A stretch of 64,000 nucleotides of DNA, taken from the IMG/VR virus record IMGVR_UViG_3300007625_000001, one strand, 5' to 3'. The DNA is from an uncultured virus (IMG/VR IMGVR_UViG_3300007625_000001). Lineage: Duplodnaviria > Heunggongvirae > Uroviricota > Caudoviricetes. The translations under genes and the position numbers were made by a program. The notes below the pieces were generated by a model. It saw only the letters and a list, made by a program, of their open reading frames with translations. It was not told the origin of the DNA and made no database searches. This document shows, piece by piece, positions 1-48,481 of the stretch (its first letter is position 1; every line of letters begins with the position of its first letter).

Positions 1-161
1 ATACCGATGATCTCATTGAAGAGCTAAAGTCTCGTGATAGTGACTATGTCTATGGGAATAATGGTCTCATTGAAAAAATTTGGATCCTTCGTAGAGAGGG
101 TAGAGACTATCAGGTAGAGTTGGATTTGTTAATCTACAATACAATCGGAAAGATTATATGA
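1..161 (+). CDS. 3' end of a hypothetical phage protein (partial)
   Basis: Hand translation ...TDDLIEELKSRDS...LIYNTIGKII*; stop TGA 159-161 overlaps the next ATG (ATGA). Not in ORF track. Confidence 0.6.
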   Translation, partial: TDDLIEELKSRDSDYVYGNNGLIEKIWILRREGRDYQVELDLLIYNTIGKII

Positions 162-292
162 ACGAAGCATTGAAAGCGATAGCGATTGAAGCAGGTGCAC
201 CAGAGGAAGTACTTAACACTCTATGGTTTAACATCTTTTGTCAAAAGTTTGCACACCTGATTATTGAAGAACTTGAAAAGGAAATTGTATAA
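158..292 (+). CDS. small hypothetical protein (44 aa)
   Basis: Hand translation MNEALKAIAIEAGAPEEVLNTLWFNIFCQKFAHLIIEELEKEIV*; start and stop overlap neighbours on both sides. Confidence 0.65.
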   Translation: MNEALKAIAIEAGAPEEVLNTLWFNIFCQKFAHLIIEELEKEIV

Positions 293-525
293 TGAAACAG
301 TTATATTTGTCCAGACGTAATCTTCTTACCCTATTAAGTAAGTTAGATCGACTAGAGGATGGTGAAAGTACTGCATGTAGCATTATTAAATATGCTAATC
401 CAACGGATCCATATTGTAACACCATCGATAAGATTATGGTAACTGCAATTCCAGATGAATTGTTCTACACGAATCGTGCGCCTGGAGTTATGCATCCAAA
501 GGAAGAATTAGCCCTTAGGAGTTGA
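292..525 (+). CDS. hypothetical protein
   Basis: ORF track; TAATG coupling with upstream ORF. Confidence 0.7.
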   Translation: MKQLYLSRRNLLTLLSKLDRLEDGESTACSIIKYANPTDPYCNTIDKIMVTAIPDELFYTNRAPGVMHPKEELALRS

Positions 526-9881: not shown

Positions 9882-10338
9882 TATTAATTTTTTTGAGCAT
9901 GTATTATCTAATGATGACTGTCAGACATTAATAAATTATTTACTAAATGATACTCCATCAGCAGTTTCATTAGATTATAATAATTTAAAAAGAACACGAG
10001 TATTAGAGCATTACATTGTTATTGATCTAAGTAAAAAATTAAATATCAATTTTGATCGAGCGTTTTTAATGCATTATAATGCAGGAATTGGTTCCGTATT
10101 ACATAATGATAACTATTCGATTGAAGAATCACGAGAAGTATTTAATGCATGGAAATCTTCTGCTGTTGTGTTTTTAAATCAAGAATTCGATGGTGGAGAA
10201 TTGATTTATCCAAATCAGGGGATTACTATAAAACCAGTAACAGGTAATATGGTAATTGCACCAGCAGATGAAAGCGCACCACACTTCGTGAGTCCATCAT
10301 CTTCAGATAGATATGTATTAGTATTAAGAATTATTTGA
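9871..10338 (+). CDS. 2OG-Fe(II) oxygenase
   Basis: LHND, FLNQEFDGGEL.YP, PHFV, DRYVL. Confidence 0.8.
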   Translation: MESNINFFEHVLSNDDCQTLINYLLNDTPSAVSLDYNNLKRTRVLEHYIVIDLSKKLNINFDRAFLMHYNAGIGSVLHNDNYSIEESREVFNAWKSSAVVFLNQEFDGGELIYPNQGITIKPVTGNMVIAPADESAPHFVSPSSSDRYVLVLRII

Positions 10339-10363
10339 CACGTAAGAATATATAATGTATAAT
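10335..10363 (+). promoter_or_regulatory. sigma70-type promoter of the tmRNA gene (TTGACA-N17-TATAAT)
   Basis: Perfect consensus; predicted start near A10370. Confidence 0.85.
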
Positions 10364-10369
10364 TGTGAT

Positions 10370-10706
10370 ATTGCTGTATGAAGCAAAGAGAAAAGTGTTC
10401 TGGACGGGAGTTCGATTCTCCCCACCTCCACCAAAAAGATAATTATGAAAAATAGATATACCGCATTGTGTCCAACTTGTTTTATTAGATTTCAGTGGAT
10501 AAAGGACAATGGGTTATCGAAACATAAGTGTCTTTCTGATGGGGGTGACTAGGTTTCGACAGGGCAACAAGTAAATGCGTGGACAGCACGAGACAGATAC
10601 TCGTTAAAAGTAAAAAACCGTAAACGCAAACGACGCACAGTTCGCATTAGCAGCCTAAACACTGCTTAGGGTTTCGGTAGGTTTCCTCGTAACAGAATAA
10701 CCTACC
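10370..10706 (+). ncRNA. ssrA: circularly permuted (two-piece) tmRNA, tag ANDAQFALAA
   Basis: T-arm GGGAG-TTCGATT-CTCCC (10406-10422) and CACCTCC-A-CCA (10423-10433) come BEFORE the 5' strand GGGGGTG (10541-10547; gives the G3.U70 Ala identity pair); tag codons GCA AAC GAC GCA CAG TTC GCA TTA GCA GCC TAA at 10626-10658. Outer ends approximate. Confidence 0.92.
10445..10552 (+). CDS. putative 35-aa CxxC..HxC peptide within the tmRNA intervening segment
   Basis: MKNRYTALCPTCFIRFQWIKDNGLSKHKCLSDGGD*; no clear SD. Confidence 0.4.
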   Translation: MKNRYTALCPTCFIRFQWIKDNGLSKHKCLSDGGD

Positions 10707-10777
10707 ACTTTATTATGCCAGCCACGTAGTGTGCCAGCCATATAATTTTAACCTTATTACAACTTATAGGAAAATAA

Positions 10778-11341
10778 ATGAAATTGAAACTTATCACTGC
10801 TGCTTCTCTAGTAGCATTCTCTGCAATGGCAAGCGCACAGTCATCTGTAACTGCAACATATGGTGTTAAAGAAGCAAATGTTACAAGTGTGCAGAGCCAT
10901 GTAACGAACATGTCTGTTAAGACTCGTGCATTTACCAATGTCGATCTTGATGCAGGTATCAATACTGAAACTGCTGACGTAGCACGCACTGTTACAAATC
11001 GTTATGAAATTGGTGTATCTACAGGAATGGATCTAACTTCATTTCTTCGTGGTGATGTTCGTCTTGGTACTGGTATGAAGCAAAAATCAGGTGTTCAAGA
11101 CTTTGGTTACTACTCTGTAGAACCTGGAGTTACTGCAAAGTTTGGTGATATTAGCACACGTGTAGCATATCGCTATCGTACTGCATATGACTCAAATGTT
11201 AATGCTGATACTAGTCAAACTATGCGTTATAGCGTAGGTTATGCATTAACTAAGAAAGATGCTATCCGACTTGGATATGATGTTCAAAGTGGTGATGGTG
11301 CTAACAAGCAAACTACTATCGCTTACACTCGCTCATTCTAA
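10778..11341 (+). CDS. outer-membrane beta-barrel protein with signal peptide
   Basis: Sec signal MKLKLITAASLVAFSAMASA; alternating amphipathic strands; C-terminal AYTRSF (BAM beta-signal-like). Confidence 0.8.
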   Translation: MKLKLITAASLVAFSAMASAQSSVTATYGVKEANVTSVQSHVTNMSVKTRAFTNVDLDAGINTETADVARTVTNRYEIGVSTGMDLTSFLRGDVRLGTGMKQKSGVQDFGYYSVEPGVTAKFGDISTRVAYRYRTAYDSNVNADTSQTMRYSVGYALTKKDAIRLGYDVQSGDGANKQTTIAYTRSF

Positions 11342-47070: not shown

Positions 47071-47089
47071 ATTTATTTTGAGGGATAGT

Positions 47090-48481
47090 ATGGCAACTTT
47101 TGAAATTTCAGCATGGAGTCCAGCAGAAAAGGTTACTAAGAAATTATTTTACAATAGTTCTCTTAGCACATTAAAGTGGGAAGATGGTTCCAATGTTATT
47201 GCAGATGTTAGAACACAACCTGATGTTGTTTCTCCTGCAAAGATTGAACATGGTAAAAAAGATTTAAAAACTGTTAAGATTCAACTAGGTCTTTCTTGTA
47301 ACTTTGAATGTGATTATTGCAATCAAAGATTCGTACCACATGCAGATGAAACTAATCCAAACGATGTAGATCCATTTGTATTGAATATGGACTCATGGTA
47401 TGAAGGTGGGTCTGATGGATTTGGTAAAGATACAAACTTCGAGTTTTGGGGTGGTGAACCATTTGTTTATTGGAAAACAATGAAGCCTCTTGCAGAAGCA
47501 CTTAATAAAAAATACCCAAATGCTCGTATGTCAGTAATTACAAATGGTAGTTTATTAGACATAGAAAAAAATGAGTGGTTAGAACGATATAATTTTGGTG
47601 TGGCGGTTTCACATGATGGTCCAGGACAACCAGTTCGTGGACCAGATCCTTTAGATGATCCAAAATCTAAAGAAGGTATTATAGATCTTTATAAAAGACT
47701 TGCACCAAAGCGTATGTTTAGTTTTAATTCTATGATTAACTCTAAGAATACTAGTCGTGCTGAGATTGAAAAATTCTTCTTCAATTTTGTTGATACTGAA
47801 ATCGGTGAGAAATATAAACAGTTCTTAACAATAGGCGAAGGTGCTTTCGTTGATGCTTATGATGAGGGTGGATTAGCAAATTCTTTAGTTGATGGTGAAG
47901 AAGATATTTCTTATAGAAATCAAGCATTAGAAGAATTGCGTGCTGGTAAGGTAACAAGATTTGATGTTATCGGGCAGAAAGTCGGTGGGTTTATTGACTC
48001 ATTAGCGAATGGTGTTAGAATCGAATCACTACCCCAAAAGTGTGGTATGGATAAATCTAATTCTATTGCTCTTGACTTAAATGGTAATGTTTTAACCTGC
48101 CAAAATGTAAGTCCAGTTTCTACAAATCCCGCAGGTATATCTCATAAACTTGGACATATATCTGATCTTTCTTCAACTAGATTAGATTCAGCTACTCATT
48201 GGAGTGATAGAAAAGAATGCCCAAACTGCCCAGTAGTACATATTTGCAAGGGTGCTTGTATGTTTCTTTCTGGTCCACTATGGGATGCTTCTTGTGATAA
48301 TGCATTTAGTGATAATATCATCCCATTTTGTATCGCAATTGAAGAGATAACAGGATGTATCCCTGAGTATATCGAGGGTCCATTAAGAGAAGATCGTAAA
48401 GATATTTTCTGGTGGGTTAAGGGTAAACCAGAAAAGGTTAGAAAACCTAAAAAGATTATACCGATTGTGATGGCATCATGA
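47090..48481 (+). CDS. radical SAM enzyme with SPASM domain
   Basis: CNFECDYC (CxxxCxxC), FWGGEP, ITNG, SHDG; KCG...GNVLTC and CPNCPVVHICKGAC...C auxiliary-cluster motif; GAGGG SD before ATG 47090. Confidence 0.92.
   Translation: MATFEISAWSPAEKVTKKLFYNSSLSTLKWEDGSNVIADVRTQPDVVSPAKIEHGKKDLKTVKIQLGLSCNFECDYCNQRFVPHADETNPNDVDPFVLNMDSWYEGGSDGFGKDTNFEFWGGEPFVYWKTMKPLAEALNKKYPNARMSVITNGSLLDIEKNEWLERYNFGVAVSHDGPGQPVRGPDPLDDPKSKEGIIDLYKRLAPKRMFSFNSMINSKNTSRAEIEKFFFNFVDTEIGEKYKQFLTIGEGAFVDAYDEGGLANSLVDGEEDISYRNQALEELRAGKVTRFDVIGQKVGGFIDSLANGVRIESLPQKCGMDKSNSIALDLNGNVLTCQNVSPVSTNPAGISHKLGHISDLSSTRLDSATHWSDRKECPNCPVVHICKGACMFLSGPLWDASCDNAFSDNIIPFCIAIEEITGCIPEYIEGPLREDRKDIFWWVKGKPEKVRKPKKIIPIVMAS

Follow-up and report, generated by a model that had tools for sequence, protein, structure and literature searches.

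A probable gene for a zinc-finger-like peptide in the spacer of a phage two-piece tmRNA

Two-piece transfer-messenger RNAs (tmRNAs) have been described in the OM43 phage Melnitz and in pelagimyophages, and 53 of 133 unique phage tmRNAs are of this type according to the accessible portion of that work, which mentions a glutamine riboswitch as content of a tmRNA 3' domain and in which the word 'intervening' is absent (PMC9004378). The 2025 tmRNA database defines the intervening sequence (IVS) as absent from the mature tmRNA; the contents mentioned in its accessible portion are a tRNA-Ala gene and a repetitive element, and homing-endonuclease genes, present in 36 of 883 tmRNA introns, are reported there only in group I introns (PMC11915505). 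Here we analyse a permuted tmRNA gene in a stretch of 64,000 nucleotides (nt) from an uncultured virus of the Caudoviricetes (IMG/VR record IMGVR_UViG_3300007625_000001; the whole stretch is called the window below). The spacer that separates its two pieces, and that would be lost on maturation, probably carries a genuine gene for a small zinc-finger-like peptide.

The permuted tmRNA, at 10341-10749 on the plus strand and with the tag ANDAQFALAA, is the sole RNA gene called by ARAGORN in the 64 kb. Two Rfam models match it above their gathering thresholds: tmRNA_permuted (RF04321) with 131.8 bits against 47 at 10372-10658 (model positions 1-213), and beta_tmRNA (RF01850) with 127.2 bits against 84 at 10321-10712 (model positions 1-331). 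The parts follow the permuted order. The acceptor piece (10372-10433, plus strand; Rfam RF04321, ARAGORN and sequence reading), consisting of the T-arm and the 3' acceptor strand with an encoded CCA at 10431-10433, lies upstream. The coding piece, with the 5' acceptor strand from G1, the pseudoknot region, the tag frame and a terminal hairpin, lies downstream at 10541-10712 (plus strand), its end being placed at 10712 by beta_tmRNA and at 10749 by ARAGORN. The two acceptor strands pair, CACCTCC-A-CCA ending at 10433 with GGGGGTG starting at 10541, with a G.T as the third pair. Between them lies a spacer of 107 nt (10434-10540, plus strand; sequence, Rfam and fold), closed by a stem and ending in a conserved CTGAT. 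Two-piece tmRNAs mature through an RNase P cut at G1 and 3' trimming to CCA. In the order acceptor piece-CCA, spacer, G1-coding piece, in a tag ending in ALAA, in an early-type promoter and in belonging to an aquatic T4-like myophage, the gene resembles known permuted tmRNAs; it differs from them, as far as the accessible portions of the sources describe them, in that its spacer appears to be a conserved protein-coding gene (PMC9004378, PMC11915505).

Other stable RNAs lose segments that contain reading frames. In the 23S rRNA of Coxiella burnetii, an IVS excised by RNase III holds an open reading frame (ORF) for S23p which, according to the part of that source accessible to us, is apparently not made in vivo and is decaying (PMC4990558). 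Like this IVS, the tmRNA spacer is a stem-closed, presumably excised segment of a stable-RNA precursor with a small ORF, horizontally acquired and dispensable. Unlike it, on the same partial source, the spacer ORF is under purifying selection, mostly has a good Shine-Dalgarno (SD) sequence and spans the processing site, and its segment would be excised by tRNA-type enzymes. The host gene is a tmRNA with tRNA-type junctions (CCA and G1), which makes the spacer an analogue of the 23S rRNA segments and not a member of their class. The homing-endonuclease ORFs of group I introns are likewise protein genes within a removed segment of a stable RNA, but here there is no intron or self-splicing, and the spacer cargo consists of membrane peptides, a thioredoxin and the zinc-finger-like peptide, not of endonucleases. 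Dual-function RNAs such as SR1/SR1P, RNAIII/hld and SgrS/SgrT combine a non-coding job with a peptide of 50 amino acids or less. The tmRNA precursor would have the same double role, with the difference that its coding part is removed at maturation and that its non-coding product is a tmRNA, an agent of translation quality control.

Full-text literature searches, which covered few of the subscription journals, returned no publication that describes a protein gene in the spacer of a tmRNA. The locus thus looks like a new case among the ORFs of excised stable-RNA segments, namely a selected protein gene in a tmRNA spacer. A segment so far treated as disposable RNA would here be a gene under selection, and the precursor of a stable RNA, transcribed from a promoter of one of the strongest types, would double as an mRNA, with translation and processing competing at the RNase P site. 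Such a locus would offer a clean system in which to study how ribosomes and tRNA-processing enzymes share one transcript.

The reading frame in the spacer and its conservation

The ORF at 10445-10552 (plus strand) translates to MKNRYTALCPTCFIRFQWIKDNGLSKHKCLSDGGD, a peptide of 35 amino acids whose putative zinc ligands C9, C12, H27 and C29 are spaced as CxxC-x14-HxC. Codons 1-32 lie in the spacer, while codons 33-35 and the TAG stop (10550-10552) lie in the 5' acceptor strand GGGGGTGACTAGG, so that the ORF ends 12 nt inside the mature RNA. A first-pass annotation made from the sequence alone had described this anatomy correctly: ARAGORN, Rfam and the sequence agree with its CCA end at 10433, its G1 at 10541, the 107-nt spacer, the ORF with its Cys/His spacing and the TAG past G1. 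Taken singly, an ORF of this kind is compatible with chance, as spacer-filling ATG ORFs are expected in 1.45 of 30 shuffled spacers, or about 5% (80-119 nt long and taken from the tmRNA lineage of the window, among the matches listed). Its significance comes from conservation.

In order to find homologues, the 35 residues were compared by phmmer with 1.84 billion representative sequences. Three small proteins were retrieved (49 amino acids, 83% identity, E = 1.3e-14; 34 amino acids, 70%, E = 2.4e-8; 49 amino acids, 67%, E = 5.2e-8), all of which keep both Cys of the first pair, the His and the last Cys. Five more matches are long proteins; in four of these the similarity is divided among 3-11 short stretches, the picture expected of zinc-finger arrays. 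Searching with a degenerate codon pattern derived from the peptide gave 25 viral loci, 15 of them unique. In 24 of the 25 the ATG stands exactly 11 nt past the CCA of a permuted tmRNA, and at least four different T-arm/acceptor sequences host the peptide, among them GCGGGTTCGACTCCCGC/CAGGTCC, GGGGGTGCGAATCCCCC and, at locus L213, an acceptor CAGCTCC. The Rfam tmRNA_permuted model scores 102-140 bits at the peptide loci L213, L223, L215 and L235. The same pattern gave no match in bacterial and archaeal genomes (one per species), and no tblastn match of the peptide was obtained at E up to 1 among 50,697 records of cultured phages, where the only blastn match to the tmRNA region was a partial one in the T-arm, covering 15% of the query. 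Of the records compared, the one nearest to the window (G001) is 100% identical across the tmRNA region.

One copy, at locus L227, is a free-standing gene of 32 codons with its own SD sequence AAGGA and its own TAG three codons past the last Cys. It sits in a tRNA array, with tRNA-Arg(tct) on one side and tRNA-Thr(tgt) on the other, and stops about 14 nt before tRNA-Thr (ORF at about 789-887, tRNA-Thr at 701-774 and tRNA-Arg at 1067-1141, all on the minus strand). Like the spacer copies, this ORF is closely followed by an RNase P site. At L213 (533-698), tRNA-Leu(taa) and tRNA-Met(cat) are found directly upstream of the tmRNA. At L223 (538-765), ARAGORN reports in addition a one-piece 'tmRNA' that overlaps and has an odd tag; this call is probably an artefact.

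Because the degenerate pattern fixes 11 codons and would bias the result, the ratio of non-synonymous to synonymous change (dN/dS, or omega) was estimated on a set collected without conditioning on Cys or His. This set combines family members from two T-arm scans with those from a metagenome scan that fixes only the CCA, the 11-nt leader and ATGAA. For the T-arm scans, which are also the source of the spacer counts given below, all figures refer to the matches listed. The leader-only scan of metagenomes returned 29 loci: 27 have the family ORF, L237 is cut by the contig end and L253 carries another ORF. The unconditioned set, among the matches listed, comprises 35 loci, 27 of them unique. All 27 unique sequences retain a complete ORF and the residues C, C, H and C, and none contains a stop or a frameshift.

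Changes were counted by parsimony on a FastTree tree of the 27 sequences over 84 shared nucleotides, which hold 15.7 synonymous sites. In the frame of the ORF, 34 changes are synonymous and 42 non-synonymous, which gives an omega of about 0.28 (binomial P = 1.7e-7). Shifting the frame on the same alignment gave counts of 10/68 at +1 (omega 1.8) and of 20/60 at +2 (omega 0.72). No residue change occurs on this tree at Y5, T6, A7, L8, C9, P10, C12, F13, F16, W18, G23, L24, H27 or C29, with five synonymous changes at the residue-invariant Y5 and six at G23; the non-synonymous changes concentrate at the x positions of the peptide. A protein alignment of 22 members that includes the free-standing L227 has 14 invariant columns (M1, T6, A7, C9, P10, C12, F13, F16, W18, G23, L24, H27, K28 and C29), and all four putative ligands are kept in 22 of 22. 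Synonymous variation, purifying selection specific to one frame and invariant Cys and His together lead us to regard the ORF as a protein-coding gene. A chance ORF was considered and is rejected in view of the homologous spacers, with their synonymous variation and invariant Cys/His.

Conservation can also be followed at the nucleotide level. The identical 107-nt spacer, with the ORF intact, occurs in at least 21 loci, and a variant (L094) differs by four substitutions, two synonymous and two conservative (I19V and N22S), with Cys and His unchanged. Family spacers are 73-92% identical to that of the window, against mostly 44-63% for the coding piece next to them (its first 120 nt); by this measure the excised spacer is conserved better than the neighbouring mature RNA. 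In six tmRNA genes (L215, L218, L220, L239, L257 and L258) the identity to the window is mosaic, 88-89% in the acceptor piece and 46-51% over the 120 nt with which the coding piece starts, which suggests recombination between tmRNA modules.

The transcript as messenger and the nature of the peptide

A sigma-70-type promoter, TTGACA-17-TATAAT, lies at 10335-10363 (plus strand). It matches the consensus at 12 of 12 positions, is kept in syntenic relatives and stands shortly before the start of the Rfam model at 10372. No promoter-like site was found between this promoter and the ATG of the ORF. The leader reads AAAGGATAWTT-ATG in 26 of the 29 family spacers that were aligned, with an SD sequence AAGGA 6 nt before the ATG and a duplex energy of -5.4 kcal/mol with the anti-SD sequence. 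The claim in the first-pass annotation that the precursor doubles as an mRNA is well supported at the level of sequence, by purifying selection in one frame only, by AAGGA in these 26 spacers, by the free-standing copy with its SD sequence and stop, and by the lack of an internal promoter-like site. The tmRNA precursor thus very probably also serves as an mRNA for the peptide.

We infer the following order of events, including translation from the precursor and the enzymes that process it. Transcription would start at the perfect sigma-70 promoter at 10335-10363, and the transcript would serve first as messenger for a Cys2-His-Cys zinc-finger-like peptide of about 30 residues. A ribosome would load co-transcriptionally, before the 3' strand of the stem that encloses the SD sequence and the AUG exists, and would then cross the spacer into the 5' acceptor strand, keeping the tRNA-like domain unfolded. 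Once the ribosome has left, the stem and the acceptor helix would fold, and the RNA would be cut at G1 and trimmed to CCA.

In contigs from RNA libraries (metatranscriptomes of three studies) acceptor piece and spacer are contiguous, at 10369-10520 (contig X2), 10344-10560 (X3) and 10390-10560 (X4), and contig X1 covers 10410-10562. No single metatranscriptome contig bridges G1 with at least 31 letters on each side. The summed contig depth is 2.5-3.4 in the spacer and 20-124 in the coding piece, as would be expected if the precursor is rare and the mature piece abundant, although the contigs may derive from DNA. In X1 and X2, both from one study, Illumina adapter letters stand directly before 10552-10555, that is 11-14 nt past the predicted G1. 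This junction is possibly a trace of the mature 5' end, contigs being of a kind that shows neither ends nor levels.

The peptide pattern is CPxC-x14-HxC, with conserved F13, F16, W18, G23 and L24 and the basic residues K26 and K28. AlphaFold, given the family alignment, predicts a beta-hairpin with strands at residues 4-8 and 15-19 that bears the CPxC turn. The peptide shares CPxC ... HxC, with F and L between, with small zinc fingers and ribbons (C2H2 beta-beta-alpha fingers, Mu Com, YacG), but its spacing C-x2-C-x14-H-x-C breaks the C2H2 rule. The weak and non-significant rows of a Foldseek search are zinc fingers (YacG, the Rad18 UBZ and ZitP). In the ESM Atlas the nearest clusters (0.91-0.92) are small viral proteins without names; the SR1P and Mu Com zinc ribbon clusters follow at 0.85 and are leads only. 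The peptide thus resembles a single small zinc finger and presumably binds zinc, and in this sense we call it zinc-finger-like, without assigning it to a named family. Our best guess is that its partner is a nucleic acid or related to translation, from its basic and aromatic face (R15, F16, W18, K26 and K28) and the company of tmRNA and tRNA genes.

Several observations weigh against a functional peptide gene in the window. The confidence of the AlphaFold model is moderate (pLDDT 70.7, pTM 0.29). Foldseek found nothing in the PDB at E up to 0.001 (best E 6.3), Pfam had no family above threshold (the only row was DUF7752, E 0.018, with 15.6 bits against a cutoff of 29) and PHROGs gave no match to the peptide. 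The sequences used in the selection test are short (84 nt), related and partly from one habitat type, with ancestral states assigned by parsimony. The AUG is buried in a stable closing stem, both in the fold of the window's spacer and in the consensus fold. The spacer depth in X1 is about that of the upstream gene; RNA libraries can contain DNA, so that contigs document presence only. The ORF is missing from the closest syntenic relatives (97-99% identity in the neighbouring gene) and is thus dispensable for this type of phage. Finally, AAAGA replaces AAGGA in the window (10435-10439, plus strand, 5-6 nt before the ATG and at the alignment position, column 4, of AAGGA in the 26 spacers), with a duplex energy of -0.9 kcal/mol, compared with a median of -4.2 kcal/mol for the 42 long ORFs of the window; 17% of these ORFs have an SD sequence as weak or weaker. 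The window's own copy may therefore be poorly translated.

The stop inside the mature RNA and competing explanations

We hold it probable, all these points considered, that the spacer carries a genuine small protein gene, that one transcript is an mRNA first and two tmRNA pieces afterwards, that the position of the stop is a by-product and that the slot is exchangeable. The explanation that best survives beside this one concerns the stop. No in-frame stop occurs in 10445-10540, and a spacer released by the cut at G1 would therefore be a stop-less message. The same holds for the family: all 30 unique members with enough sequence read through G1, none having an in-frame stop within the spacer. 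The first-pass annotation had foreseen such a non-stop message, and from the sequence this much follows; its further proposals, that the message is a substrate of the tmRNA itself and that a feedback or timing device is built on it, are not shown by the data. In a self-sensing device of this kind the full peptide would come only from the uncut precursor, while the product of the cut spacer would be tagged by the tmRNA and degraded, giving a pulse or a feedback on tmRNA maturation or activity.

In favour of the device, other spacer genes follow the opposite rule. Among 40 unique spacer-filling ORFs in spacers of at least 80 nt (among the matches listed), 31 end at a TGA 1 nt before G1, and the nine that read through are eight copies of the zinc-finger gene and L262. 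Moreover, a ribosome in the 5' acceptor strand would have to melt the acceptor stem, and translation and the RNase P cut would be mutually exclusive on each molecule. The read-through copies, however, all represent one family, hence one evolutionary event, and carry no statistical weight. Their stops occupy 10 different positions between +12 and +90 nt past G1: +12 (5 sequences), +24, +27 (10), +36, +48, +57, +60 (3), +69 (3), +78 and +90 (4). The tails are unrelated to one another and unconserved. The free-standing L227 ends three codons past Cys29, so that no particular C-terminus seems to be needed. The window's TAG is part of a GACTAGG that is common to the ORF-less relatives L129, L130, L134 and L135, and the in-frame TCT GAT follows of necessity from the conserved YTGAT together with the closing stem. 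From the scattered stops, the unconserved tails, the short end of L227 and the presence of GACTAGG in ORF-less relatives, we read the overshoot as a by-product: the stop within the mature RNA seems to follow simply from how the frame falls on the conserved YTGAT (read here as TCT GAT). We consider the device unlikely. The read-through family nevertheless makes the idea of a message turned tmRNA substrate directly testable.

A broader version holds that expression of the peptide is gated by maturation of the pre-tmRNA, with a co-transcriptional interval for translation that ends when the stem around the SD sequence and the AUG closes, and with the products of spacers released by RNase P being tagged by the tmRNA of phage or host and destroyed, and that two-piece tmRNA genes of phages are a dedicated slot, exchangeable by recombination, for the expression of small early effectors. 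We find this improbable too; if true, the gating would produce a self-limiting early pulse or act as a read-out of trans-translation capacity.

Another explanation is that the window's copy is decaying, a G-to-A change in the SD sequence having largely silenced a real family gene and left the spacer as a processing hairpin only. The loss of duplex energy reported above, from -5.4 kcal/mol in 26 of 29 family spacers to -0.9 kcal/mol here, agrees with this. So does the fold: the window's spacer reaches -24.1 kcal/mol (z = -3.08), none of 200 shuffles being equally stable, and in sister phages plain ORF-less hairpins of 32-101 nt show that a hairpin alone suffices. In the window, the 5' strand of the closing stem (10435-10447, plus strand) holds the SD-like site and the AUG, and its 3' strand (10523-10535, plus strand) coincides with the codons of His27-Lys28-Cys29-Leu30; both strands are found in the consensus fold and in the minimum free energy fold. 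Against decay, the ORF is intact in all of the at least 21 loci with the identical spacer, and the four changes in L094, which shares the AAAGA, spare the Cys and His. The distant L213 also has AAAGA with an intact ORF, and the share of the window's long ORFs with SD sequences equally weak or weaker has been given above. We therefore judge decay of this copy quite unlikely.

Least credible by far is that the conservation stems from RNA structure and processing signals only, with frame and Cys/His incidental: in the consensus fold, alignment columns 2-8 pair with 96-102 and 10-14 with 90-94, these closing-stem pairs are kept in 28-29 of 29 sequences, the hairpin is stable and the first and last spacer nucleotides are conserved even in non-coding spacers, but compensatory change is seen in one of 26 predicted pairs (covariation term -0.8 kcal/mol), the 27 unique unconditioned copies are free of stops and frameshifts, and the confinement of the synonymous excess to the ORF's frame, together with the free-standing L227 outside any tmRNA, leads us to reject this candidate.

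The spacer as a slot for small genes, and neighbouring features

Syntenic relatives were found through the gene downstream of the tmRNA (10778-11338). Five syntenic loci have a spacer identical to that of the window. In other syntenic phages the spacers are unrelated to it, though the mature tmRNA parts align well: 32 nt in L129 (neighbouring gene 99% identical), 74 nt in L130 and L134 (97%), 90 nt in L131, 101 nt in L135 and yet others in L132 and L133. The expectation that relatives would conserve the frame and the Cys/His pattern therefore holds for homologous spacers, which keep both under purifying selection, and fails for the closest syntenic relatives, which lack the frame. Among the 73 unique spacers of the window's T-arm type that were listed (28-208 nt), this ORF occurs only in the 107-nt type.

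More generally, the spacers of phage tmRNAs often contain small genes. Many start with TAAGGAG or TAAGGAA right after the CCA and have an ATG 9-14 nt in, with an ORF that stops at the TGA of YTGAT, 1 nt before G1. We counted spacer-filling ATG ORFs in 164 unique spacers among the matches listed, with mononucleotide shuffles as the expectation; the T-arm scans that supplied these spacers are blind to their content. Such ORFs fill 16 of 26 spacers of at least 120 nt (0.18 expected), 24 of 63 spacers of 80-119 nt (3.4 expected) and 13 of 75 spacers below 80 nt (7.1 expected). The cargo includes families of hydrophobic peptides of 22-26 residues and soluble proteins of 37-75 residues. At L311, a 268-nt spacer encodes a thioredoxin of 84 residues with a WCGPC motif (phrog_22; PF00085 at 75.4 bits, cutoff 23.5, E 4.1e-21). 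Its gene (137-388, minus strand) lies within a permuted tmRNA at 8-463 (minus strand; Rfam 124 bits) and ends at a TGA 1 nt before G1. A scan for CCA followed by TAAGGA returned 62 loci, 51 of which are without a partner under the G1 pattern used.

The unrelated spacers of near-identical sister phages and the diversity of the cargo imply that spacer content is often exchanged or lost. This indicates that the phage tmRNA spacer is an exchangeable slot for small genes or non-coding hairpins. If so, these spacers harbour a hidden class of phage micro-proteins, missed by gene callers and tmRNA annotators alike, and annotation pipelines should check permuted tmRNA genes for ORFs.

Two further spacers are of interest in themselves. 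The 52-nt spacer of L074 retains the first ~10 and the last ~40 nt of a 208-nt ORF-bearing spacer (L037/L093) and looks like a deletion remnant from which a 64-codon gene was removed. At the metagenomic locus L253, the leader CCA-AAAGGATAWTT-ATGAA precedes a different ORF, for a hydrophobic peptide of 34 residues; this leader may be common to cassettes.

The remaining features of the gene are those of a tmRNA. The tag reading frame, GCA...TAA, lies at 10626-10658 (plus strand) and encodes ANDAQFALAA, in agreement between the sequence and ARAGORN (coding part 286-318 of the gene). At 10676-10706 (plus strand) lies a terminal hairpin, GGTAGGTT...AACCTACC, with a T-rich tail behind it; seen in the sequence, present as a paired helix in the beta_tmRNA model and kept in relatives, it would be the 3' end or the terminator of the tmRNA gene. 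The first pseudoknot helix (10560-10600) varies among near-identical phages, both of its sides having changed in step: the window's ACGAG...CTCGT compares with TCATC...GATGT or TTGTC...GACAT (comparison with L129, L130 and L135), which is fast, compensated evolution of the tmRNA body.

The source is a freshwater, T4-like phage. Around the tmRNA the window has the gene content of a T4-like myophage, with a gp32-type single-stranded DNA-binding protein, baseplate hub and wedge proteins, PhoH, an endolysin and an exonuclease. Directly 3' of the tmRNA, a protein of 187 residues with a signal-peptide-like N-terminus is encoded at 10778-11341 (plus strand); it has no PHROG match and is kept at this place, with 80-100% identity, in the relatives considered here. 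A radical-SAM-domain protein (phrog_1802, E 5e-62) is encoded at 47078-48481 (plus strand), amid tail-fibre and structural genes.

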